Below are positions 1-12,205 of a stretch of 64,000 nucleotides of DNA, piece by piece. The notes beneath the pieces are model-generated. The model was not told where the DNA came from and searched no databases. It saw nothing but the letters and a program-made list of their open reading frames with translations. Made by a program: the position numbers and the translations under genes. The DNA is taken from the NCBI RefSeq assembly GCF_051903065.1, contig NZ_CP178438.1; one strand, given 5' to 3'. The stretch comes from Escherichia coli. GTDB lineage: Bacteria > Pseudomonadota > Gammaproteobacteria > Enterobacterales > Enterobacteriaceae. Position 1 is the first letter of the stretch; each line of letters starts with the position of its first letter.

Positions 1-1
1 T

Positions 2-1786
2 TCTCCCGCGCTGTCGAAAATGCAAAAGAAAATCCGGGGATTTAAACGCCAGGCGGAAGAAGCGTCACAGGGTGGGCTGGCGCTTGGGGGCGGACTGGCA
101 GCGGGTCTGACGCTTTCCCTGAAATCTTATGCCGATCAGGAAAACGCCGCCACCGGGCTGAAAGTCGCCATGATGGATGCGAACGGCGAGGTTGGAAAGA
201 GCTTTCAGGACATCAATAAACTGGCTATTGGCCTGGGTAACCAGCTACCTGGTACAACTGCTGATTTCCAGAACATGATGCAGATGCTGGTGCGTCAGGG
301 GATCCCGGCAGAAAACATTCTGGGTGGTGTGGGTAAAGCGACAGCTTATCTTGCGGTACAACTGAAAAAAACACCGGAAGCGGCTGCTGAGTTTGCTGCA
401 AAGATGCAGGATGCTACCGGAACGGCGTCAGAAGACATGATGGGGCTGTTCGACACTATCCAGAAGGCGTTTTATCTGGGCGTTGACGATACCAACATGT
501 TGTCCTTCTTCACTAAAACCAGTTCTGTTCTGAAGATGGTGAACAAGGATGGTCTTCAGGCTGCACAGAGCCTTGCCCCCATCAGCGTCATGATGGATCA
601 GATGGGGATGAACGGGGAGTCGGCAGGTAATGCCCTGCGAAAAGTTATCCAGTCCGGATTAAGCGTTAAGAAAATCAGGGACGTTAATAAAGTTATGGCC
701 CGCCAGAAACTCGGGGTACAGCTCGATTTTACTGACGGCAAAGGAAGTTTTGGCGGTCTTGATAACATGTTCAGGCAACTGGCAAAGCTGCGAAAACTGA
801 CCGACGTTAAGCGAACAGGTGTACTTAAGGCAATATTTGGTGATGATGCCGAAACCCTTCAGGTGGTCAATGCACTAATCGATAAAGGAAAGGATGGCTA
901 CGATCAGATCCAGCAGAAGATGAATAAACAGGCCAGCCTGAATAAACGTGTTCAGGCACAGCTTGGTACGCTGTCCAACCTGTGGGAGGCAATGACGGGG
1001 ACCGCAACTAACGGCCTTGCGGCTATTGGCGGCGCATTTTCTGGTGACGCTAAAAATATCACACAATGGCTGGGGGAGTTGGGGGAGAAATTCACGAAGT
1101 TTGCGGATGAAAATCCCCGGGTTATTCGCGGCGTCGTCGGGCTTGCTGCCGGTCTTACGATTCTGAAACTGGGATTGATGGGCGTGGGCAGTGCCATCAG
1201 TATTGTCAGCAGGATTATGTCGATGACGCCGATTGGCATGATTGCGACGGCGATTGCTCTGGCTGCGGGATTAATTATCACTAACTGGGATGTTGTCGGA
1301 CCTTATTTCAAGAAGCTCTGGGAAACCATTGGTCCTTATTTTGAGGCAGGTTGGGAACTTCTGAAGAAGGTTTTTGCCTGGTCGCCGCTGGGGATGGTTA
1401 TCAATAACTGGGGACCGGTTGTTAAGTGGTTTCAGGATATGTGGGACAAGCTGAAGCCAATTATTGAGTGGTTTACCGACAGTTCCGGTGACACGGTCGA
1501 TGCCATTAACTCTGCGCAGTGGGGCGCGGGTGCTTATGATGCTTATGGGACGGGAATACCGGCGCGGGGATACACACCTTATCCGGCGGTGGATCCGGCT
1601 CAGTCAAACAACGCCTCCGATGCCACAGGCTCGAATCCCTTCATGATTAACAAAGCTTCTGTGCCAAAAGTTGATGGTGAGATCAAGGTATCTTTTGTGA
1701 ATTCGCCTCCGGGTATGCGGGTTATGGAAACGCGATCCAGCGGTTTTGATGTCAGCCATGATGTTGGCTATACGCGGTTCAGGTAG
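2..1786 (+). CDS. Phage tail tape measure protein (5'-truncated by window edge)
   Basis: Frame is open from the window start; Gly/Ala-rich hydrophobic segment (GVVGLAAGLTILKLGLMGVGSAISIV) and W-rich repeats (WDVVGPYFKKLWETIGPYFEAGWELL) typical of tape measure proteins; sits just upstream of the baseplate genes. Confidence 0.7.
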   Translation, partial: SPALSKMQKKIRGFKRQAEEASQGGLALGGGLAAGLTLSLKSYADQENAATGLKVAMMDANGEVGKSFQDINKLAIGLGNQLPGTTADFQNMMQMLVRQGIPAENILGGVGKATAYLAVQLKKTPEAAAEFAAKMQDATGTASEDMMGLFDTIQKAFYLGVDDTNMLSFFTKTSSVLKMVNKDGLQAAQSLAPISVMMDQMGMNGESAGNALRKVIQSGLSVKKIRDVNKVMARQKLGVQLDFTDGKGSFGGLDNMFRQLAKLRKLTDVKRTGVLKAIFGDDAETLQVVNALIDKGKDGYDQIQQKMNKQASLNKRVQAQLGTLSNLWEAMTGTATNGLAAIGGAFSGDAKNITQWLGELGEKFTKFADENPRVIRGVVGLAAGLTILKLGLMGVGSAISIVSRIMSMTPIGMIATAIALAAGLIITNWDVVGPYFKKLWETIGPYFEAGWELLKKVFAWSPLGMVINNWGPVVKWFQDMWDKLKPIIEWFTDSSGDTVDAINSAQWGAGAYDAYGTGIPARGYTPYPAVDPAQSNNASDATGSNPFMINKASVPKVDGEIKVSFVNSPPGMRVMETRSSGFDVSHDVGYTRFR

Positions 1787-1885
1787 TGTACAAAATGATT
1801 AATGTGTTTTTGTCTGGCATAATTTGGGTTTTCAGCTTTAAGTAGTTAATATAATCATTCCTTACAAATGATTGAAGGGATGATT

Positions 1886-2380
1886 ATGCGTATCTTTGTT
1901 TTTTTTATATCTGCACTTTTATCTTTTAACTTGGCTGCGGAAGAGTGTAAGTTCAGCTTTAATGAGTCAGAATTAATCTCTTCTATAGGTATTGCACCAG
2001 TTAAGCAAGAGATAATAAAGGATGAAGGAATAACTAAGCGGCAATATGAATTCAGAAGAGAATTATCTTCTGAAGAAATGCTTAGTGATGACGCTGATGA
2101 AAAATATGAGCCGCAGTTTTATATATCTGTTTATAATCCATCATGCCCACAAAAGGTTATTGTTTGGTTTTTCAAAGACAATAAAAACACAATGGATTTA
2201 AGTAATGAGGTCCTTGCTGGTAGAGCGTTCAAGTATTTAACTGGTGTTAATGAAAGTATTTTTGAAAATAAAATGAAAAAGTTTTTAAAGGTACAGTCAT
2301 TTGAATCTTTTGATGAAAGGACAGATTCTAAATTTATAAAGAGTGGTGATATTTATTCCATTGATGTTCAACTCAGATAG
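1886..2380 (+). CDS. Hypothetical secreted protein; AT-rich accessory gene (moron) inside the tail module
   Basis: ORF 1868..2380; the ATG at 1886 is preceded by AGGGA; N-terminal signal-peptide-like segment MRIFVFFISALLSFNLAAEE; markedly AT-rich compared with the flanking GC-rich tail genes; no recognisable family. Confidence 0.5.
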   Translation: MRIFVFFISALLSFNLAAEECKFSFNESELISSIGIAPVKQEIIKDEGITKRQYEFRRELSSEEMLSDDADEKYEPQFYISVYNPSCPQKVIVWFFKDNKNTMDLSNEVLAGRAFKYLTGVNESIFENKMKKFLKVQSFESFDERTDSKFIKSGDIYSIDVQLR

Positions 2381-2399
2381 TAATTAAAAATATTAGGTT

Positions 2400-2456
2400 C
2401 CCGCCACATCTTCTGCGATGTAAATAACTGACAAAGCAGATTTGGCGGGTTTTTTG
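2400..2456 (+). terminator. Putative hairpin plus T-run downstream of the moron
   Basis: cccgcca ... tggcggg inverted repeat followed by tttttt. Confidence 0.35.
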
Positions 2457-2470
2457 TATCCGGAGTTTAT

Positions 2471-3799
2471 ATGACGTGGAAAGACAGGCTTCAGGATGCG
2501 TCATTTCGCGGCGTACCGTTTAAGGTTGAAGAAGAAAGTGCGGGAACCGGTCGCCGTGTGGAAACACACGAATATCCGAACCGCGACAAGCCCTATACCG
2601 AAGATCTGGGAAAAGTCACTTTCCGCCCGTCCATCACAGCTTATGTGGTGGGAGATGACTGCTTTGACCAGCGCGATCGCCTGATTGACGCGCTGAATAA
2701 ACCCGGTCCCGGCACGCTTGTCCACCCGACATATGGTGAGCTGAAAGTCTGTGTTGACGGGGAAGTTCGGGTCAGCACATCGAAAAGTGAAGGGCGTATT
2801 GTCCGCTTTGACCTGAAGTTTGTCGAAGCAGGAGAACTCTCTTACCCCACATCAGGTGCGGCGACGGCGCAGACGCTGATGTCATCCTGTTCTGCACTGG
2901 ATGACTGCATCAGTGACAGCTTCAGCGGTTTCAGTATCGATGGTGTGGCGGATTTCGTGCAGAACGACGTTATCGGTAATGCCAGCATAATGCTGGGGTA
3001 TGTTTCTGATGCGATGAAAGTGGTGGATTCTGCCGTATCGGATGCCGCCAGGCTGTTGCAGGGGGATATCTCGGTACTTCTGCCGCCGCCATCGTCAGGC
3101 AAAAATTTCGTTGAGCAGGTGCAGAAAATGTGGCGTACCGGGAAACGCCTTTATGGTAACGCCAGCGACCTGGTCACCATGATCAAAACGCTTTCCGGTG
3201 TCAGCCTCGGCAGCGATCTGCAACCGCGCGGCGTCTGGAAAACGGACAGTAAAACCACCGCCACGGCGACGCAGCAGCGTAACGTGGTTGCCAGCACCCT
3301 TCGTACGACCGCAATCAGCGAAGCGGCGTATGCCGTCACACGATTGCCTGCGCCCACAACTTCCGCGGTGATGCAGAATGCCACAGTGGGGCCGTCAACA
3401 ACACCCACGCAGAGCACCGGCTGGCCTTTTGTCACGCATCCGGCACTGAACAATGCACCGGCGGTGAAAAACACGGTTGACCTGCCAACGTGGGAAGAAC
3501 TGACCGACATTCGCGACACACTGAATACGGCAATTGATAAGGAGTTGTCCCGTACAACCAGTGATGCGCTGTTTCTGGCGCTGCGCCGGGTGAAAGCAGA
3601 TCTGAATGCGGATATCAACACGCGCCTTGAACAGTCTGCACGGATCATTCAGCGCACGCCGGATGAGGTTTTACCCGCGCTGGTGCTGGCGGCGACCTGG
3701 TTTGATAACGCGGCGCGTGACGCGGACATTATCCGGCGTAATGCCATTACGCATCCCGGCTTTGTGCCGGTGATCCCTCTGAAGGTGCCAGTGCAATGA
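2471..3799 (+). CDS. Phage DNA circulation protein (Mu gp43/N-like)
   Basis: 442 aa; N-terminus MTWKDRLQDASFRGVPFKVEEE...HEYPNRD matches the Mu-like DNA circulation family as I recall it; located between tape measure and baseplate genes. Confidence 0.7.
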   Translation: MTWKDRLQDASFRGVPFKVEEESAGTGRRVETHEYPNRDKPYTEDLGKVTFRPSITAYVVGDDCFDQRDRLIDALNKPGPGTLVHPTYGELKVCVDGEVRVSTSKSEGRIVRFDLKFVEAGELSYPTSGAATAQTLMSSCSALDDCISDSFSGFSIDGVADFVQNDVIGNASIMLGYVSDAMKVVDSAVSDAARLLQGDISVLLPPPSSGKNFVEQVQKMWRTGKRLYGNASDLVTMIKTLSGVSLGSDLQPRGVWKTDSKTTATATQQRNVVASTLRTTAISEAAYAVTRLPAPTTSAVMQNATVGPSTTPTQSTGWPFVTHPALNNAPAVKNTVDLPTWEELTDIRDTLNTAIDKELSRTTSDALFLALRRVKADLNADINTRLEQSARIIQRTPDEVLPALVLAATWFDNAARDADIIRRNAITHPGFVPVIPLKVPVQ

Positions 3800-4875
3800 A
3801 CGACAATGTCACGCTACGGGTAAATGGCCGGGAGTGGAATGGCTGGACATCGGTGCGCATCGGTGCCGGTATTGAACGGCTGGCGCGGGATTTCAGTGTG
3901 GAGATCACTCGCCAGTGGCCGGGAGATGAGGGTATCACCACGCTTCAGCCGCGCATTAAAAACGGTTCAAAAGTGGAAGTGCTGATTGGTGATGAGCTGG
4001 TGATCACCGGCTGGGTGGAGGCGACTCCCGTTCGTTACGATGCCCGTTCGGTCAGCACCGGTATTGCCGGACGTAGTCTGACGGCTGACCTGATTGACTG
4101 TGCAGCCGAACCGACACAGTTTAACGGACGCTCGCTGGTGCAGATTGCGCAGGCGCTTGCTGCGCCTTTCGGCATTGAGGTGGTGAACAGCGGTGCGCCG
4201 TCGGGTGTTATTCCTGATGTTCAGCCTGATCACGGTGAAACGGTGATTGAGGTAATCAACAAAATACTCGGTCAGCAGCAGGCGCTGGCTTACGACGACC
4301 CGCACGGCAGGCTGGTGATTGGCGGTATTGGCTCAACGCGGGCACATACCGCGCTGGTACTCGGGGAAAACATCCTTTCCTGTGATACGGAGAAGAGTAT
4401 CCGGGAGCGGTTTTCTGTTTACCAGGTGGCGGGGCAGCGTGCCGGAAACGACGATGATTTCGGTGAGGCCACCACCACCGCGCTGCGGGCCCGCACAGAG
4501 GACGCATTTATTGCCCGTTACCGTCCGATGTATATCAGGCAGACAGGGCAGGCCACGGGGGCAGGTTGTATTGCGCGTGCTGACTTTGAAGCCCGACAAC
4601 GGGCGGCGCGGACGGATGAAACCACCTATGTGGTGCAGGGCTGGCGACAGGGTAACGGTACGCTGTGGCAGCCCAACCAGCGGGTGATTGTCTTCGATCC
4701 GGTCTGTGGTTTCGACAATACCGAACTGCTTGTCTCGGAAGTCACGTTTACTCAGGACCAGAACGGCACCCTGACGGAAATCCGTGTCGGCCCACCTGAT
4801 GCTTATCTGCCTGAACCCGAAGCCCCCGGCGCGCGGAAAAAGAAAAAAGCCAGAGTACAGGAGGACCCGTTCTGA
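3796..4875 (+). CDS. Phage baseplate hub / tail protein (Mu gp44/P-like)
   Basis: 359 aa; start overlaps the upstream stop (ATGA); position in the Mu-type module. Confidence 0.65.
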   Translation: MNDNVTLRVNGREWNGWTSVRIGAGIERLARDFSVEITRQWPGDEGITTLQPRIKNGSKVEVLIGDELVITGWVEATPVRYDARSVSTGIAGRSLTADLIDCAAEPTQFNGRSLVQIAQALAAPFGIEVVNSGAPSGVIPDVQPDHGETVIEVINKILGQQQALAYDDPHGRLVIGGIGSTRAHTALVLGENILSCDTEKSIRERFSVYQVAGQRAGNDDDFGEATTTALRARTEDAFIARYRPMYIRQTGQATGAGCIARADFEARQRAARTDETTYVVQGWRQGNGTLWQPNQRVIVFDPVCGFDNTELLVSEVTFTQDQNGTLTEIRVGPPDAYLPEPEAPGARKKKKARVQEDPF

Positions 4876-5423
4876 TGAGGACGATTGAAGCCATGCAGCG
4901 ACAACTTCTCGGCCTGATTGGGCGGGCGGTGGTGAAAAGCATCAGTGCCGCCACGAAATGTCAGACCGTGGATGTGTCCCTGATTGCCGGTGAACCCAAA
5001 GCCGGGGTTGAACATCTTGAACCCTACGGTTTTACCGCAAGGGCAAACAGCGGTGCGGAAGCGGTGGTGTTGTTTCCGGATGGCGACCGTTCTCATGCGG
5101 TGGTTGTTACGGTGTCGGACCGGCGCTACCGCCTGAAAGGGCTGCAGACGGGTGAGGTGGCTGTCTATGACGATCAGGGGCAGTCCGTGACGCTGACCCG
5201 GGCGGGGATCGTGGTGGACGGTGCAGGTAAAACGATTACGTTTCGCAATGCGCCTAAGGCTCGTTTTGAAATGGACCTGGAAGTGACCGGACAGGTGAAA
5301 GACCTGTGCGACTCCACCGGCACCACCATGTCAGCGATGCGACTTGCCTATAACGGGCATCGTCACAGAGAGAACGGTCAGGGCAGTAACACCGACAAAC
5401 CTGATAAAGCGATGGAGGCATGA
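4875..5423 (+). CDS. Phage baseplate assembly protein V / spike (Mu gp45-like)
   Basis: 182 aa; gpV-like size and position; overlapping start/stop with neighbours. Confidence 0.65.
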   Translation: MRTIEAMQRQLLGLIGRAVVKSISAATKCQTVDVSLIAGEPKAGVEHLEPYGFTARANSGAEAVVLFPDGDRSHAVVVTVSDRRYRLKGLQTGEVAVYDDQGQSVTLTRAGIVVDGAGKTITFRNAPKARFEMDLEVTGQVKDLCDSTGTTMSAMRLAYNGHRHRENGQGSNTDKPDKAMEA

Positions 5424-5848
5424 TGGAACTGTGGCTGACGGTGAACGGTAAACGCACCTGCGCCAGCGCACAACTGGATCCGCTGACCCGCGCCGTGGTG
5501 ATTTCCCTGTTTACCTGGCGGCGGGCGGAGCCTGATGACAACGCCGACGTCCCGATGGGATGGTGGGGGGATACCTGGCCTGCGGTACAGAATGACCGTT
5601 ACGGCTCCCGACTGTGGCTGCTTCAGCGCAGCAAACTGACCAATCAGCTGGTGCAGACGGTAAGGGGGTATATCCGCGAATGCCTGCAATGGATGATTGA
5701 TGACGGCGTGGTGTCCCGTATTGATCTGGATATCCGCCGCACCGGGATTAATGAACTGGGTAACAGTATCACTCTCTGGCGTCGTGACGGACCGGTAATG
5801 ATTTCTTTTGATGATCTGTGGAGTGCGATAACGCATGGCGGACAGTGA
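5420..5848 (+). CDS. Phage GP46-family baseplate protein
   Basis: 142 aa; position and size match Mu gp46. Confidence 0.6.
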   Translation: MMELWLTVNGKRTCASAQLDPLTRAVVISLFTWRRAEPDDNADVPMGWWGDTWPAVQNDRYGSRLWLLQRSKLTNQLVQTVRGYIRECLQWMIDDGVVSRIDLDIRRTGINELGNSITLWRRDGPVMISFDDLWSAITHGGQ

Positions 5849-6893
5849 ATTTCAGCGCCCGACGCTGGCAGAAAATATCAGTATGCTCCGTAACGATTTA
5901 TTCGCCAGGCTGGACGTCAGTGACACGCTCCGGCGCATGGATGAAGACGTGCGGGCAAAGGTGTATGCGGCGGCGCTGCATACGGTTTACGGTTACATCG
6001 ATTATCTGGCAATGAACATGCTGCCTGACCTGTGCGATGAGTCCTGGCTGGCGCGACATGCTGCGATGAAACGGTGTCCGCGCAAGGGGGCGACGGCTGC
6101 CAGCGGGTATATGCGCTGGGAAGGTGTCAGCGATGGCCTGAAGGTGACCGCCGGGAGTGTTATTCAGCGCGATGACCTGGTTCAGTACACGGCAACTGCC
6201 GATGCAACCAGCTCCGGTGGTGTCCTGCGCGTGCCGATCGCCTGCTCAAGTGCAGGTGCGGTCGGTAACGCTGACGACGGTACGGCATTAATCCTGGTCA
6301 CGCCGGTGAATGGTCTGCCGTCTTCCGGTGTGGCTGACACCCTTACAGGCGGATTTGATACTGAAGAGCTGGAAACGTGGCGCGCCCGCGTCATTGAGCG
6401 GTATTACTGGACGCCTCAGGGCGGGGCTGACGGGGACTATGTCGTCTGGGCTAAAGAAGTGCCCGGCATTACCCGCGCATGGACATACCGTCACTGGATG
6501 GGAACGGGAACTGTCGGTGTGATGATTGCCAGCAGTGACCTGATTAATCCCATTCCGGAAGAATCAACGGAAACGGCAGCAAGACAACATATCGTGCCAC
6601 TGGCCCCGGTGGCAGGCTCTGATTTGTATGTATTCAGGCCGGTGGCACATACGGTGGATTTTCATATCCGCGTGACGCCGGACACACCAGAAATACGAGC
6701 CGCCATCACCGCGGAGTTGCGTTCGTTTCTTCTGCGTGATGGTTATCCGCAGGGAGAACTGAAGGTATCGCGTATCAGTGAGGCGATTTCCGGTGCGAAC
6801 GGGGAATATAGCCATCAGTTGCTTGCACCGGCAGACAATATCTCCATTGCGAAAAATGAACTGGCGGTTCTGGGGACGATTTCATGGACGTGA
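5835..6893 (+). CDS. Phage baseplate J-like wedge protein (Mu gp47-like)
   Basis: 352 aa; conserved synteny. Confidence 0.65.
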
Positions 6894-7468
6894 CAAACGA
6901 TGATTACATCCGTCTGTTGTCGGCACTGTTGCCACCCGGTCCGGCGTGGTCAGCCAGAGATCCGGCGATTGCCGGTGCGGCACCGTCATTAACCCGCGTT
7001 CATCAGCGTGCGGATGCCCTGATGCGGGAGCTGGATCCGCGCACCACCACTGAACTGATAAACCGCTGGGAGCGTCTGTGCGGTCTGCCGGATGAATGTA
7101 TTCCCGCAGGGACACAGACCCTTCGCCAGCGTCAGCAACGACTGGATGCGAAGGTTAACCTGGCGGGCGGCATCAATGAGGATTTTTACCTTGCACAGCT
7201 TGCTGCCCTGGGCAGACCAGATGCCACCATCACGCGATACGACAAAAGCACCTTCACCTGCTCATCGGCCTGTACTGACGCGGTGAATGCGCCGGAATGG
7301 CGGTATTACTGGCAGGTCAACATGCCAGCTGCCACCAACACTACCTGGATGACATGTGGCGATCCCTGTGATTCCGCACTGCGTATCTGGGGGGACACCG
7401 TTGTCGAGTGTGTGCTTAACAAACTCTGCCCGTCGCATACCTACGTAATTTTTAAATATCCGGAGTAA
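6884..7468 (+). CDS. Phage tail protein (Mu gp48 / DUF2313-like)
   Basis: 194 aa; position immediately upstream of the tail fibre gene. Confidence 0.6.
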
Positions 7469-7471
7469 TCC

Positions 7472-8512
7472 ATGCATCGTATAGACACGAAAACCGCGCA
7501 GAAGGATAAGTTCGGCGCGGGTAAGAACGGTTTTACCCGTGGTAACCCCCAGACCGGCACACCTGCCACCGATCTGGATGATGACTACTTTGACATGTTG
7601 CAGGAGGAGCTTTGCAGCGTTGTGGAGGCATCAGGTGCCAGCCTGGAGAAGGGGCGGCATGACCAGTTACTTACCGCACTTCGCGCGCTGCTGTTAAGCC
7701 GCAAGAATCCGTTTGGCGATATCAAATCGGATGGCACGGTGAAAACAGCTCTCGAAAACCTTGGTTTGGCTAATTACGCAGACAAAGCAAGTCTGGCGAA
7801 TCAGGAGTTTTCTGGTCCCGTATCATCTAAAGACTGCGTTACCGCAACATCGGCAGATGGGGTAACCCGCAAAGTATCGCTTAATGCCAGTACGGGTTTG
7901 AAGATAGTTATTTATGATGGCGGAACTTACAAGGGGGCAATAAACATCCCGGCAAAAGACGGGACAATGGCACTTGTATCTGATTTGGCTAATTTTGCTG
8001 ATAAATTGAGTGCTTCTGAGCAATATTTTAAAGGACCTGTTTCATCCGGGGATGGGCTCATAGCAAAATATGGCACCGCAAAAATAATTCTGTCAGCCCA
8101 AAACGGTCAGAGAATTGTTGTTTATACAAACGACACTTACCGTGGAGCTATTAATATTCCACTTCGTGACGGAACTATGGCGCTCCTGGATGATGTTACT
8201 AATGTTAGCGCAACGCTGCTGGGTATATCTCAGTCATGGCAGAACGTGAAAGCCAGCCGTAGTGCCGGGGTTACGTATACCAACTCAACAGGCAGGCCCA
8301 TTGCAGTTTCAATCGCCGGAATAATGGCAACACGTCAGAATGGAGTTCAGTTGTCACTTGCCGTTAATGGCACAGAGGCTTCAAGTTTTGCCGTGACTGA
8401 CAGCTCGTTTGACATCAGGGGTAACGTATTTGCGATTGTGCCACCAGGAGCAACTTACAAACTTACAGCAAATAACATTAATTCTATTTTGACCTGGTCG
8501 GAGCTTCGCTAA
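7472..8512 (+). CDS. Phage tail fibre protein
   Basis: 346 aa; N-terminus [10 protein letters not shown]...[23 protein letters not shown] resembles the conserved tail-fibre N-terminal domain; internal ~60-aa duplication; followed by an assembly chaperone gene. Confidence 0.75.
7749..7774. other. hix/gix-like imperfect palindrome inside the tail fibre gene (candidate invertase crossover site)
   Basis: ctctcGAAAACC-TT-GGTTTggctaat; compare the hix half-site TTCTTGAAAACC; lies at the junction of the conserved N-terminal and variable C-terminal fibre regions (codons ~93-101). Confidence 0.45.
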
Positions 8513-8889
8513 TGAATACGGTAATCAAAGAGCAAAAATTCTTTAAGGACTCGGCCGGTGTGATTTTTTGCATCGACATCATGGAAATGAATGCTGAGTC
8601 ATGGGGTGAAGAAGTACAGGCCGGATGGCAGGAAATTAGTGCCGATGAAGCGCTATTAATTGCTAATCCACCGCCTACAGAGGAACAGCTATTTGAACAG
8701 GTTAGGGCGCAGAAACAGGCCCTGATTTCCGAGGCGACTGCAATTATAGATCCACTTAAGGATGCACTGGATGGTGGCTATATCGACGATGCAGACAAAC
8801 CAAGACTGACTGAATGGCAAAAGTACCGCTATGAGGTGACGAAAGTTGATCCGGGAAAACCTGTGTGGCCACCGAAGCCTACAGAATAG
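8512..8889 (+). CDS. Tail fibre assembly protein (Tfa/U-like chaperone)
   Basis: 125 aa; start overlaps the fibre stop; C-terminus ...KYRYEVTKVDPGKPVWPPKPTE typical of Tfa proteins. Confidence 0.75.
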   Translation: MNTVIKEQKFFKDSAGVIFCIDIMEMNAESWGEEVQAGWQEISADEALLIANPPPTEEQLFEQVRAQKQALISEATAIIDPLKDALDGGYIDDADKPRLTEWQKYRYEVTKVDPGKPVWPPKPTE

Positions 8890-8932
8890 GAACATTTTTT
8901 ATAACCATCAAAAATCTGGTGATATTTCGCCT

Positions 8933-8958
8933 CTTCTCCTGTTTTTACAACAGGAGAA
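8933..8958 (+). other. Perfect 10-bp stem hairpin overlapping the invertase Shine-Dalgarno sequence
   Basis: cttctcctgt-tttaca-acaggagaag; the right arm contains AGGAG positioned 7 nt before the invertase ATG at 8965. Confidence 0.5.
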
Positions 8959-8964
8959 GCACTC

Positions 8965-9528
8965 ATGATTTACGGGTATGTTCGTGTATCAACAAATCAT
9001 CAGGATACAGAGTTGCAACGTCTTGCACTTGAGTCAGCTGGCTGTGAGCGAATTTATGAAGAATATGCCAGTGGCAGAACAGCTAATCGCCCTGTGTTAA
9101 AGGAATTAATTACGGTGATGAAAAGTGGAGATGAGTTGATTGTCTGGAAGTTAGATCGGATAGGGAGAAATGTGCTGCATGCGCTATTTATGTTTCAAAA
9201 TCTGCACGAAAAAGGTGTTAATTTTCGGAGTATTACAGATGGCGTAGACCTGAAAACAGCAAGTGGTCGCTATAATTTCCGTAATATTCTTTCTGCTGCG
9301 CAGTATGAATCTGATTTGAATAGCGAGCGAACTTTAGCTGGTTTGGCTATTGCCAGATCCAAAGGCCGGATTGGTGGGCGTAGACCGAAGTTTAGCGACG
9401 AGCAGTGGCAACAGATGGGAGCGCTCATAGCGGCAGGGAAATCACGGCGTTATGTTGCACGTATCTATAACGTTGGGCTATCAACCCTATATAAACGATT
9501 TCCTGTTACTGGCATTCAAACGAAATAA
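8965..9528 (+). CDS. Serine recombinase, DNA invertase (Gin/Pin/Hin family)
   Basis: 187 aa; MIYGYVRVSTNHQ...LDRIGRN motifs characteristic of resolvase/invertase family; adjacent to tail fibre genes as in the Mu G-segment/gin arrangement. Confidence 0.85.
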   Translation: MIYGYVRVSTNHQDTELQRLALESAGCERIYEEYASGRTANRPVLKELITVMKSGDELIVWKLDRIGRNVLHALFMFQNLHEKGVNFRSITDGVDLKTASGRYNFRNILSAAQYESDLNSERTLAGLAIARSKGRIGGRRPKFSDEQWQQMGALIAAGKSRRYVARIYNVGLSTLYKRFPVTGIQTK

Positions 9529-9671
9529 TTTAAAAGCAATTTAAAGAGTTATTTGTCTAATGTTGGAAGCCGCAGCCACGTCGTATGCAAGAACGTGCTG
9601 CGGCTGGCTGGCGAACTTTCGATAGTGCGAGTATTGAATGATTTCCAGCCGTTACCGATTTTACGTGTTAA

Positions 9672-9920
9672 TTAGTGAACAAACCACTCGTCAGCAGATT
9701 CCCAGGTATCTTTCAGAGTCTCCTGAACAAAAGTTTTTGCAGAATCCTTATCTGCGGTGCGTGTAACAGAAAGGCCATCGTTGCTGGTGGCTTTTACGAT
9801 CACCTCTACATCGTCATAACGTTTACTGATGCGTCGGGTTAATTCTTCCTTTAACGCATCCACAGCACCGGTTGGCATTTTAGTCATTTTTTCTTTGGCT
9901 ATGCAGATTTCAATACGCAT
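9672..9920 (-). CDS. DinI-family DNA damage-inducible protein
   Basis: 82 aa; MRIEI...[24 protein letters not shown]...DEWFV pattern typical of DinI/MsgA; LexA boxes immediately upstream. Confidence 0.8.
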
Positions 9921-9935
9921 AAAAGTCCCTCTATA

Positions 9936-9979
9936 CTGTGTTTGTATACAGTATTATTTTTAACTGTATAGATAAACAG
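9936..9979 (-). promoter_or_regulatory. Two tandem LexA (SOS) boxes upstream of the DinI-like gene
   Basis: taCTGTgtttgtatACAGta (9936-9951) and aaCTGTatagataaACAGtg (9964-9979), both CTGT-N8-ACAG. Confidence 0.75.
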
Positions 9980-9981
9980 TG

Positions 9982-11079
9982 TCAAGAGGCCTTATTTCTG
10001 CTCCTTTGGAGCTCTTCAAAACGATTATGTAAAGATTTCGGATACAGTTCGGTATATACCTGCCATAGCACGTTTAATGAACGATGCCCTGTAACCTGGG
10101 CGACTTCCTCAATACTAAAACCAGCCTCAAATAAGCGACTTGCCCCTTCTCTACGCAAATCATGGTATCGCAGATCTTTAATACCTAATTTGCTTCTTAC
10201 CCTCTGGAATCCCGCAGTAACAGAAGTGCTGTTATATGGAAAAATGAATTCTGATTTTTTGGGTTGTCGTTGGACGATATCCCAGGCTTCCCCAAGCAAG
10301 GCTACTTTCATATGGTTGCCTTCCTTTTTACGTGGATCTTTCCTGTCTCTTACGAGTATGGATTTTTGTTCCTGATCGAGATCCTCCCATCGTAATCGGC
10401 ATACTTCACCGATTCGCATACATGACCACACAGAAAATTTGAGGATATCAACGAACGGAATTTTTGAGCATTTATGTGTAGATCGTTGTTGAAGACCTTC
10501 AATGAGCATGTCCAGTTCATCAGATGCCGGTCTACGATTACGACGATTTGATTTACCAATTAAACCAAGTTTAAGTAGATATGGACGAGCGGCTTTTGCT
10601 GGGTTTGATGTGTAATTAATTCCATATACAGGTTTGGCAGCATCCAGAACACTGCCAAGATAACTAACATCGTGGCTAACTGTAGCTGGACCTGCACCAG
10701 CGTTGTTTCTTAGCCTGCAATGTTCAATTACGTCATTTTCTGTCAGTTCAGATAGTTTGAGCGCGGAGACGTCACTATCCATAAGCAGTTCCAGCACATA
10801 TCTTTTAGTACGGCCTGCTTTACCTCCGGCATTTGGGTCATTTAAATATTTGTGTAGTAAGTCACGGACTGTAAGTCCGTCAACTGCATTTGATGATGGA
10901 ATGCCATATAGATCTAATTCCATCACTTTCTGTGTGCCCCATGTTTTGGCATGAGCATGTTTAGGGAATGTTTTACTTTCCCTGTAAGTGATAACACCTT
11001 TTTCTTTGATAATCACATTACAGCGATAGCGTGGTGTGCCATCGGATTTTAGTCGTTTCTCTATGTTATAGTATGCCAT
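9982..11079 (-). CDS. Tyrosine-type phage integrase
   Basis: 365 aa; C-terminal region with R...HDLRR...Y spacing typical of tyrosine recombinases; GAGG RBS 8 nt upstream; terminal position of the prophage next to dusA. Confidence 0.8.
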   Translation of the reverse strand: MAYYNIEKRLKSDGTPRYRCNVIIKEKGVITYRESKTFPKHAHAKTWGTQKVMELDLYGIPSSNAVDGLTVRDLLHKYLNDPNAGGKAGRTKRYVLELLMDSDVSALKLSELTENDVIEHCRLRNNAGAGPATVSHDVSYLGSVLDAAKPVYGINYTSNPAKAARPYLLKLGLIGKSNRRNRRPASDELDMLIEGLQQRSTHKCSKIPFVDILKFSVWSCMRIGEVCRLRWEDLDQEQKSILVRDRKDPRKKEGNHMKVALLGEAWDIVQRQPKKSEFIFPYNSTSVTAGFQRVRSKLGIKDLRYHDLRREGASRLFEAGFSIEEVAQVTGHRSLNVLWQVYTELYPKSLHNRFEELQRSRNKAS

Positions 11080-11095
11080 TACACGACCTCGTTAT

Positions 11096-11145
11096 TTCGG
11101 GTTCCCATAAAACGTGGGAACCTGTGCGGGAACCTAACGCGAGAA
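11096..11145. repeat. Cluster of three GGGAACC(C) repeats between the integrase start and dusA (candidate integrase-binding or att-associated repeats)
   Basis: cGGGTTCCCataaaacgtGGGAACCtgtgcGGGAACCtaa. Confidence 0.4.
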
Positions 11146-11167: not shown

Positions 11168-12205
11168 ATGCACGATAATCATGAAACACAAAAAATTAAT
11201 CAAACCAGCGTGATGCCTGAAAAAACTGGTGTTTACTGGAATTCTCGGTTTAGCATTGCTCCTATGCTCGACTGGACGGACAGACATTGCCGCTATTTCT
11301 TGCGTCTGCTTTCCCGCAATACGTTGCTGTATACCGAAATGGTGACTACAGGGGCGATTATTCACGGTAAAGGTGATTATCTGGCGTACAGTGAAGAAGA
11401 ACATCCGGTAGCGTTGCAACTGGGCGGTAGCGATCCGGCGGCGCTGGCGCAGTGTGCGAAGCTGGCAGAAGCGCGCGGATATGATGAGATCAACCTGAAT
11501 GTCGGCTGCCCGTCTGACCGGGTGCAGAACGGCATGTTTGGTGCGTGTCTGATGGGTAATGCGCAGCTGGTTGCCGACTGCGTGAAAGCGATGCGCGATG
11601 TGGTGTCGATTCCGGTGACGGTGAAAACGCGTATTGGCATCGATGATCAGGACAGCTATGAATTTCTCTGCGATTTCATCAACACCGTTTCCGGCAAAGG
11701 CGAGTGTGAGATGTTCATCATCCATGCACGTAAAGCCTGGCTTTCGGGGTTAAGCCCGAAAGAAAACCGTGAAATCCCGCCGCTCGATTATCCGCGTGTG
11801 TATCAACTGAAGCGTGACTTTCCGCATCTGACAATGTCCATTAACGGTGGCATCAAGTCGCTGGAAGAAGCTAAAGCGCATTTGCAACATATGGATGGCG
11901 TGATGGTCGGGCGCGAGGCGTATCAGAATCCGGGTATTCTGGCGGCGGTAGACCGGGAGATCTTTGGTTCCTCGGATACCGATGCCGATCCGGTTGCGGT
12001 AGTGCGCGCCATGTATCCGTACATTGAGCGTGAACTCAGCCAGGGGACGTATCTCGGCCATATTACCCGGCATATGCTGGGCTTGTTCCAGGGTATTCCT
12101 GGCGCGCGGCAGTGGCGGCGTTATTTAAGTGAAAATGCCCATAAAGCGGGTGCAGACATTAATGTGCTGGAACACGCGCTCAAACTGGTGGCGGATAAGC
12201 GTTAA
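11168..12205 (+). CDS. dusA: tRNA-dihydrouridine synthase A
   Basis: 345 aa; recognised DusA sequence and K-12 synteny (dusA-pspG-qorA-dnaB); extreme N-terminus may be prophage-supplied. Confidence 0.9.

Follow-up and report, generated by a model that had tools for sequence, protein, structure and literature searches.

Fibre switching driven by DNA invertases is textbook biology, and the locus described here is therefore not itself a new kind of system. The kind is already known, and the Escherichia coli stretch analysed (64,000 nucleotides, hereafter the window) hosts a single-cassette variant of it. The G segment/Gin system of phage Mu resembles the window in gene order (gp44-48, S, U, gin) and in having the crossover inside the fibre gene, at the junction between its constant (Sc) and variable (Sv) parts. 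Inverted repeats of 34 bp are found in Mu, together with the S/U and S'/U' pairs, whereas the window has one cassette, bounded by sites that are barely alike. Mu moves by transposition, and the window prophage has instead a dusA integrase. The P segment/PinE of the K-12 element e14 and dusA-prophage relatives such as SKA5 share with the window the fibre constant part (StfP/YmfQ module), the outer half of the left site and a right core set 73-74 nt upstream of pin. They differ in that their Sv-chaperone cassettes are two and convergent, and that the inner half of their right site is of the consensus type (TTCTCCCAAACC), while the window features one cassette and an inner half provided by the end of the chaperone gene. 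PinQ and PinR (Qin, Rac) and the pinL gene of phi80 immediately follow, as the window invertase does, either a lone fibre/chaperone pair or a fibre fragment. The left site is missing in phi80; in the window both are retained, and their cores are compatible.

A single Sv-chaperone cassette is hosted also, in a G-like segment, by a Mu-like prophage of the Citrobacter freundii complex (L212/L215). Here too the right site is made of the chaperone end CAGAATAGG, AA and an outer half, and the stump of the OFF state ends with Pro-Ile-Leu, as predicted for the window. Unlike the window, these loci feature a strong outer half (CGTTTCCGATAA) and a Gin-type enzyme 54 % identical, and both orientations are common. 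The hixR site of Salmonella Hin is functional and asymmetric, one of its halves being far from the consensus and ending with GG beside an AA core. GG and the AA core are found in the window right site as well; hixR keeps one perfect half-site, and the window site has none. Recombination at poor matches sharing the central dinucleotide has been reported for Cin quasi-sites (Iida & Hiestand-Nauer 1987, cited in PMC4134206), and site-like motifs bracket host-range segments at both ends (Sandmeier 1994, cited in PMC8986868). As cited in those papers, these reports parallel the window in the poorly matching sites, the shared central dinucleotide and the crossover-like sequences around host-specificity segments, but describe neither a conserved site inside a chaperone stop codon nor the on/off inversion of a single cassette. 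Set against the Mu G, P1 C and e14 P segments, the window has a 26-bp site at the Sc/Sv junction, lacks two opposed alternative cassettes, and both orientations have not been observed among its copies.

The module is located at the right end of an SfV/SKA5-like prophage with a Mu-type tail, integrated in dusA. The features of the region are the following.

7472-8512, plus strand: tail-fibre gene, 346 aa (ORF list; PHROG tail-fibre families, full-length match to phrog_18834)
7472-7762: fibre constant part Sc, 97 aa
7749-7774: left crossover site, CTCTCGAAAACC TT GGTTTGGCTAAT, core TT at 7761-7762
7763-8512: fibre variable part Sv
7763-8890: putative invertible segment, one Sv + chaperone cassette (1,130 bp core to core)
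7766-8203, plus strand: tandem duplication in Sv, two 73-aa (219-nt) units
8512-8889, plus strand: tail-fibre assembly chaperone, 125 aa (phrog_188/136; PF02413 Caudo_TAP on an identical protein)
8879-8904: candidate right crossover site, hybrid, CTACAGAATAGG AA CATTTTTTATAA, core AA at 8891-8892 (from positional homology)
8933-8959, plus strand: 11-bp stem-loop, CTTCTCCTGTT-TTTAC-AACAGGAGAAG, sequestering the Shine-Dalgarno of the invertase gene
8965-9528, plus strand: Pin-type serine DNA invertase, intact, 187 aa
9672-9920, minus strand: DinI-like gene
9982-11079, minus strand: dusA-specific prophage integrase
11168-12205, plus strand: dusA

The left site is the sole match to the crossover consensus in 64 kb (1 against 0.00 expected); a looser pattern gives 2 matches in the window against 0.67 expected. 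Homology with sister prophages and with SfV, SfI and SfII stops just right of the left core. Sc is 94-97 % identical to the fibres of these three phages as far as 7769, and the GC content changes from about 0.57 before the site to about 0.42-0.48 after it. The outer half of the site is common to about 25 sister loci. SfV was also considered as a frozen relative and rejected, as its chaperone end differs and no core junction is present. The Sv units 7766-7984 and 7985-8203 are direct repeats at 219-nt spacing, 53 % identical at the protein level (BLASTP, E 4e-25).

The invertase can be aligned along its entire length to Mu Gin (PDB 3UJ3, residues 1-181, E 1e-56). The catalytic Ser9 is present, in the context YVRVS(9)T, and residues 142-185 match the DNA-binding domain of Hin (1HCR), with a C-terminal HTH. 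The protein falls in phrog_125 (DNA invertase, E 3.6e-72), and PF00239 and PF02796 (HTH_7) are found on proteins identical or nearly identical to it. A Fis-dependent recombinational enhancer may be present in the 5' part of pin, as indirectly indicated by the near-identity to the SKA5 gene described below; comparison of pin with Gin-type genes revealed no conserved 5' DNA block, of the type marking an enhancer, beyond coding conservation. At the DNA level the gene is 99.5 % identical to the invertase gene of phage SKA5. The two-cassette segments of SKA5 (L004) and L022 are 99.8 % identical, yet inverted, and each adjoins a 99.5 % identical pin; judged by this flipping next to near-identical genes, the Pin enzyme itself is competent.

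Several claims of an earlier note on this DNA are borne out by these data. The hix/gix-like site proposed at the boundary between the fibre constant and variable parts is a unique consensus match coinciding with a homology breakpoint, and the Gin/Pin-type gene following the chaperone is intact and aligns with Gin at full length. The short interval between chaperone and invertase, and the lack of an opposite-strand pair, are both confirmed from the ORFs: 75 nt separate the chaperone stop (8887-8889) from the invertase ATG (8965), and nothing of the fibre or chaperone type is listed among the opposite-strand ORFs of the window. The internal duplication of the fibre is real, its unit being 73 aa long (7766-8203) rather than about 60 aa. 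The note saw one site only, the second being at best a half-site at 8907-8914. This premise is wrong: a candidate second site, its core compatible with the left one and its outer half genuine, lies at 8879-8904.

This right site is positionally homologous to the right sites of about 85 pin loci, its core being 74 nt from the pin ATG in the window and 73 nt in the relatives. The outer half is an A/T-rich half-site of the kind seen beside pin genes, and is the only position in the window reaching its score on the outer-half PWM. The inner half is formed by the 12 nt that close the chaperone gene, the TAG stop included; it scores on the PWM like random sequence, and bears no resemblance to the consensus. 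The AA core is compatible with the TT core on the left, and beyond the core the two sites have no more than a few flanking bases in common. Read toward the core, the outer half TTATAAAAAATG coincides at 9 of 12 positions with TTATCAAAAACC, which we take to be the hix half-site, and may therefore bind Pin better than assumed. Homology of the cassette with those of L006, a non-invertible locus, and L206 stops exactly at the core, in L006 at TAGGAA. The window cassette is found also between both cores of a P2-like prophage (L206), and hence in two unrelated backbones in all. As a putative invertible unit it is rare, being present in 2 of 5,426 complete E. coli genomes.

At this junction the window sequence is ...CAGAATAGG AA CATTTTTTATAA: the chaperone stop and GG come directly before the AA core, and a half-site-like flank and the invertase follow. 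The same organization is found in L002, L009, L036, L041, L080, L206, L212, L218 and L220, and the junction is seen again in prophages of the Mu-like, P2-like, lambdoid and other types. A single chaperone gene, identical throughout and ending with GCAGAATAGG, continues after AA into at least seven different flanks, all half-site-like, and altogether the stop codon plus GG adjoins the AA core in at least nine flank combinations, involving four chaperone families. The invertase is intact in nearly all Pin-type single-cassette loci. The set of single-cassette loci sharing this junction between chaperone stop and core is a class delimited in the present analysis. Tentatively, and with the balance tilting somewhat against the idea, chaperone 3' ends (...CAG[A/C]ATAGG, stop included) may be a working crossover half-site defining an undescribed class of single-cassette invertible elements, which would turn the fibre ON and OFF and not exchange host range, and in which invertases would move Sv-chaperone units via the 2-bp core among Mu-like, P2-like, lambdoid and other phages. 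The window copy would be one such cassette, captured at a weak Pin-type half-site, and may flip rarely. No description of single-cassette on/off fibre inversion was found in the searchable literature.

Inversion is documented in sister systems. In Mu-like prophages of Citrobacter, L212/L219 and L215/L182 have collinear flanks 99.96-100 % identical, and a 1,083-bp segment that is inverted at 99.8 % identity. The OFF product, a 109-aa fibre stump, is found at no fewer than 2 insertion sites, on 9 contigs, against 4 contigs with the ON fibre; L214 is a P2-like OFF copy. As the Citrobacter segment is found in both orientations, inversion of such modules does take place, and turns the fibre on or off. 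In all the OFF cases the enzyme is of the Gin type and the outer halves are strong (CGTTTCCGATAA, CGTTTTTGAAAA). A degenerate ON-junction pattern gave in IMG/VR mostly chance matches and 3 real ones; the single real match to the OFF-junction pattern, L182, points again to the Citrobacter family. Among the other loci surveyed, the alternative Sv of L017, L056 and L072 is reduced to 6 codons.

The 12 known copies of the window locus are all ON and collinear, with identical sites, intact 346-aa fibre and intact invertase, and about 35 Pin-type single cassettes have been verified as ON and none as OFF, though the assemblies counted are non-independent and in part clonal, and an OFF minority of 1-5 % would still assemble as ON. 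For comparison, 33 % of 562 genomes have the P segment of e14 inverted (PMC12529663); if this rate applied, finding no OFF copy among 12 would have P < 0.01. In silico, inversion of the window cassette is predicted to leave a 100-aa stump made of Sc plus Pro-Ile-Leu-stop, with junctions reading GAAAACC TT CCTATTCTGTAGG and ATTAGCCAAACC AA CATTTTTTATAA. Look-ups depending on exact protein match and gene call retrieved none of the predicted OFF proteins of the window-, L002- and L009-type cassettes, the chaperones of which are found in 47, 276 and 87 index blocks, respectively. The OFF protein predicted for the L206-type cassette is similarly not on record in the exact look-up, a result of little weight as the type is rare. 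In complete E. coli genomes BLAST detected no OFF junction of the L002 type against 3 exact ON junctions, the copies being few. A fourth, divergent match, covering 96 % of the query, emerged in the ON search. In JGI metagenomes neither the OFF nor the ON junctions of the window were found. A homology search with the stump returned mostly partial proteins at contig ends, and the sole non-GL junction (P0001/L221) was discarded as an unrelated rearrangement beside flxA. The frozen look attributed to the system in the earlier note fits these population data, all 12 copies being ON and the OFF product unrecorded.

On balance, the locus is probably a single-cassette tail-fibre inversion module of the Pin/Gin family, locked or strongly biased in the ON state, with a right site lacking a strong half-site. 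This lack is the most likely reason for the ON bias, and weak binding of Pin at the right site would be what locks the module. Pin would have to synapse the full left site in the fibre gene with the hybrid right site; 1,130 bp would then be inverted as the strands are exchanged at the TT and AA cores. The fibre would be reduced to the 100-aa stump, and Sv and chaperone would face away from the late operon (fibre OFF). In the window lineage inversion seems not to reach a detectable rate. The module plausibly originated by site-specific exchange, and looks like a dead-end product, a past exchange at the core having put a foreign Sv-chaperone cassette beside a weak Pin-type outer half. Judging from its lower GC and its presence in a P2-like phage, the cassette appears indeed foreign, and not the survivor of a pair. 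Some points weigh against this reading: the invertase is intact in nearly all Pin-type single-cassette loci, which argues for some retained function, and the contrast with Citrobacter could stem from enzyme type or lysogen age, not from site strength.

Compatible with a locked module, and possible though on the unlikely side, is that the invertase is kept because other prophages of the genome host two-cassette segments on which it acts in trans, its own segment being irrelevant. There is experimental precedent, as PinQ/PinR of Qin and Rac invert the e14 P segment in trans (PMC12529663), and in EC958 Phi4 a truncated invertase lies beside a flipping segment, implying trans action (PMC4134206). 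E. coli genomes host a median of 2, and a maximum of 9, places matching this region. The integrity of the invertases in nearly all single-cassette loci fits a role in trans, but could merely mean recent origin, and no further crossover site is present within the 64-kb window.

A little less likely still is a working ON/OFF switch, in which Pin would invert the 1,130-bp cassette at a low, biologically meaningful rate, and either some induced virions would lack the distal fibre or the lysogen would cease making it. Both orientations are known of the same architecture, with the last 9 nt of the inner half, CAGAATAGG, and the AA core, from Citrobacter Mu-like and P2-like prophages; the window has compatible cores, a genuine outer half-site and an undamaged invertase. 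Pin-type core junctions with four different chaperone ends imply moreover that exchange took place there in the past. Against a switch in use stand the lack of OFF copies among the 12 window loci or the 35 or so Pin-type single cassettes, the unrecorded OFF products, and the fact that neither half of the right site is strong. The on/off alternative of the earlier note is correct for the class, since a sister system flips, and is only predicted for the window copy.

Plain decay is very improbable. In this scenario a random deletion would have removed half of the right site together with the alternative cassette, leaving the invertase as a remnant in the course of being lost. Remnants do exist: phi80 pinL lies beside a fibre pseudogene fragment and has no left site, L017/L056/L072 retain just the 6 codons of alternative Sv mentioned above, and some relatives (H32-H40) have lost the invertase. 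However, the junction is non-random, given the recurrence of stop and GG next to the AA core in so many combinations of flanks and chaperone families, the cassette appears foreign by GC and P2-like occurrence, and no copy has a broken invertase or fibre ORF. Of the options offered in the earlier note, the remnant is the least supported, because the intact invertase shares 99.5 % identity with one located beside a flipping segment. The half-site ATCAAAAA at 8907-8914 (CCATCAAAAATC TG GTGATATTTCGC) is hardly credible as second site, because, in spite of a 9/12 match to what we take as the hix half-site, it falls in the spacer conserved between right site and pin in all type-B loci, the alternative Sv frame of two-cassette type-B loci enters at a core 16-26 nt further upstream, the TG core is incompatible with TT, and the right half scores -35 on the PWM.

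Where a single fibre/chaperone pair is followed by pin, annotators usually write the gene off as an orphan. Here the candidate second site lies hidden in the stop codon of the chaperone gene, and inverton finders relying on inverted repeats cannot see a site so embedded. Flipping of the sister prophages to fibre-less stumps amounts to on/off phase variation of phage adsorption organs, which would affect prophage-induction phenotypes and cause breaks in short-read assemblies. The exact coincidence of cassette ends with the core, seen in many backbones, points to site-specific recombination as one way in which host-range cassettes are exchanged, of relevance to the engineering of phage host range.

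Variations are found also between the right site and the invertase gene. In L211 and L217 a 140-aa gene is inserted in this interval; these loci, considered as a possible three-site arrangement, turned out to be single cassettes with the inserted gene. The stem-loop preceding pin (8933-8959; -21.8 kcal/mol, z -4.8) is kept in all Pin-type loci, with a compensatory change from C:G to T:A between types A and B, and its counterpart in phi80 is annotated as IR3.

The fibre locus belongs to the right end of a prophage, arranged in the window as follows.

1-11,100, right end of the prophage, integrated in dusA
8879-8904, right crossover site, CTACAGAATAGG AA CATTTTTTATAA, at the homologous position, core 74 nt upstream of the invertase ATG
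9982-11079, minus strand, prophage integrase
11168-12205, plus strand, intact dusA, followed by pspG and qorA

Genes follow a Mu-like order (gp44, gp45, gp46, gp47, gp48/YmfQ, fibre, chaperone, invertase, DinI-like gene, integrase). The deposited genome of Escherichia phage SKA5 is 98.2 % identical to the visible 11.1 kb (90 % of length covered), and Shigella phages SfII, SfI and SfV are about 97 % identical to the window as far as 7769. The right-end module (pin, DinI, integrase) is found also in dusA-integrated prophages with lambdoid tails (L229, 1446-4133; L008, 2336-5137), whose side tail fibres continue from the crossover site into cassettes known also from the Mu-type-tail phage. The module is therefore common to different tail types.

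The crossover consensus has one match in the 64-kb window (0.00 expected), the hix/gix-like site noticed earlier inside the fibre gene at 7749-7774 (CTCTCGAAAACC TT GGTTTGGCTAAT). In alignment, identity to three sister loci stops just right of the TT core, and SfV-group homology stops at the same place, which sets the site at the boundary of constant and variable fibre parts, as had been proposed. GC, about 0.55-0.60 in the constant part, is 0.41-0.50 across cassette and invertase (7700-8900), which is consistent with a foreign origin of the cassette, i.e. variable part plus chaperone gene. The internal fibre duplication is real, and involves two 73-aa units (7766-7984 and 7985-8203, 53 % identity, E 4e-25) rather than about 60 aa at roughly 7808-8210. 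The invertase (8965-9528) is an intact Gin/Pin-type enzyme, as the earlier note had it: residues 1-181 align with Mu Gin (PDB 3UJ3, E 1e-56), and catalytic serine and C-terminal HTH are present. An opposite-strand alternative fibre/chaperone pair is indeed missing, as only 75 nt separate the chaperone stop (8887-8889) from the invertase ATG, and no fibre- or chaperone-like ORF was found on the other strand at this locus.

Pin genes are mosaics. That of L008 shares about 70-83 % identity with the window gene in its first 270 nt and 100 % from there on; in L208 and L210, homology to the window pin region is lost at about 9062 and regained near 9566. An 11-bp stem-loop (CTTCTCCTGTT/AACAGGAGAAG) at 8933-8959 (-21.8 kcal/mol, z -4.8) buries the invertase Shine-Dalgarno. 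It corresponds to IR3 in the phi80 annotation and is conserved throughout the Pin-type loci; types A and B differ in it by a compensated base-pair swap, C:G to T:A. It probably restrains translation of pin.

Relatives with two cassettes (L001, SKA5 itself as L004, and around 60 IMG/VR loci) have a right site made of TTCTCCCAAACC AA and an outer half, either CCTTTCAAATAT (type A) or CCTTTTTTATAA (type B), with the core 73 nt upstream of the pin ATG. Its window homologue is the 8879-8904 site, and not the degenerate half-site suggested at about 8907-8914; ATCAAAAA, found there, belongs to the spacer that type-B loci conserve between right site and pin, and was rejected as a crossover site. L008 has exactly the window's outer half, there combined with a consensus inner half; within the window, no other position reaches the score of this outer half with the outer-half PWM. 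The window inner half is the chaperone 3' end, and its PWM score is like that of random sequence.

A chaperone stop codon plus GG abutting the AA core is found also in L002 (type A outer half), in L009, L036, L041, L080 and L220 (type B), in L206 and L212 (Gin-type flanks) and in L218, four different chaperone ends being represented. At least 7 different flanks, always directly after AA, follow one and the same chaperone protein, ending GCAGAATAGG, and all of these flanks start half-site-like (CGTTTCCGATAA, GGTTTGAGAGAG, GGTTTTGTAGAA, CCTTTGAAAATG, CCTTTGAAAGAA, CCTTTTGTGGAT, CCTTTTTTATAA). The P2-like prophage L206 carries the window's own cassette, with an identical chaperone protein, between an H-gene left site (…CTCGCATACC TT GGTTTGGCTAAT) and AA CGTTTAAGAAAA plus a Gin-type invertase. 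Phage contig L006 hosts a 71 %-identical cassette whose homology to the window ends at TAGGAA; no invertase was found on the stretch examined. These comparisons indicate that the single-cassette junction is a recurrent class and not a one-off deletion. So many combinations with their breakpoints at one dinucleotide argue for strand exchange at the core, not for illegitimate deletion.

An IMG/VR scan for the predicted left junction of the OFF state (cassette inverted, fibre stump left) identified L182, and its chaperone protein led to a Mu-like prophage family from the Citrobacter freundii complex. L212 and L219 are ON (gp45-48, 332-aa fibre, chaperone, and the invertase 70 nt further on). The OFF state is seen in L215 and L182, with a 109-aa stump ending …ALSNL-PILLQD* and chaperone and variable part on the opposite strand. 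Flanks of the two pairs are collinear and 99.96-100 % identical, and a 1,083-bp segment is inverted at 99.8 %. Junctions are CTCTCAAACC TT/GGTTTGG… and …CAGAATAGG/AA CGTTTCCGATAA, plus the exact reciprocals. By exact-sequence look-ups, 9 contigs carry the Citrobacter-type OFF product, at 2 or more insertion sites, and 4 carry the ON fibre. The P2-like prophage L214 is also OFF. Single-cassette segments with this chaperone-end inner half therefore flip in nature, as a distal-fibre on/off switch. All OFF cases have strong outer halves and Gin-type invertases, 74-80 % identical to Mu Gin and 54-56 % to the window Pin.

The switch proposed earlier thus holds for these sister modules, but every examined Pin-type single cassette, the window's included, is ON. 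The window type counts 12 copies, all ON, whose sites are identical and whose 346-aa fibre is intact; of the L002 and L009 types, 11 examined copies each are all ON, as are L036, L041, L080 and L220; these copies are partly non-independent, and an OFF fraction that is small within a culture would not show in assemblies. OFF products built in silico for the window, L002 and L009 types are not on record, though the chaperones occur in 47, 276 and 87 index blocks, respectively. The window lineage, said to look frozen, appears not to flip; it may still host a rare but real switch. The enzyme itself is not at fault, since the two-cassette segments of SKA5 and L022 are 99.8 % identical yet inverted, and the pin beside each shares 99.5 % identity with the window gene. 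As a comparison, 33 % of 562 genomes carry the e14 P segment inverted (PMC12529663). The window Pin plausibly acts in trans on other prophages; precedents are PinQ/PinR, which act on e14 (PMC12529663), and, in EC958, the truncated invertase of Phi4 (PMC4134206). Apart from the known pair, no crossover site was found in the 64-kb window. Simple decay of the module is unlikely, because the junction is non-random, the cassette foreign and lower in GC, and the ORFs intact.

Each dimer of a serine invertase occupies two half-sites, and asymmetric sites that occur in nature, hixR for example, function, so a site with one strong half should be usable. We infer that a weak right site makes the window's module appear locked ON. 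In the Citrobacter module strength would be supplied by the outer half. In Pin-type loci the outer half would be the weak partner, normally leaning on a consensus inner half, and a chaperone end in its place would leave the right site without any strong half. In the ON state the left site would be perfect and the right one very poor, while in the OFF state each site would hold one good half; OFF-to-ON is thus predicted to be much faster than ON-to-OFF, giving an ON-locked look. Improving either half of 8879-8904 is predicted to restore flipping.

The system is a member of the classical family. The variant is distinguished by a single cassette, a right site overlapping the chaperone stop codon, on/off instead of A/B, and borders at the core across phage types; no description of it was found in the searchable literature. 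The window copy is the least dynamic member of the single-cassette class.

Hundreds of deposited partial proteins end only a few residues from the left crossover site, among them protein clusters P0054 (101 aa, 609 member sequences) and P0059 (105 aa, 550) and, on dozens of contigs, Citrobacter constant-part fragments of 96-108 aa. Short-read assemblies break at left crossover sites, a behaviour to be expected where orientations are mixed or flanks repeated. In L221 (Logan ERR3329079 contig 99, 4001-4417) the window's constant part continues, precisely at the left core, as unrelated DNA (…ALENL-PYIEGASV…) that lies upstream of a flxA-like gene; the fusion may come from inversion between two prophages, through a site in the other one, or may be a chimera of the assembly.

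L017, L056 and L072 (e.g. L017:3776-4929) represent another way of arriving at a single cassette. Their fibre and chaperone genes precede a terminator hairpin and a right site that retains an inner half (CTGTTCGAAACG), and the alternative variable part is cut to 6 codons (RFEQEE*). L017 and L056 are ON, and the L017 invertase is 99.5 % identical to the window's. In the single-cassette module of L211/L217 (3870-4540), a 140-aa opposite-strand gene with its own terminator, which looks like a moron, lies between right site and invertase gene.
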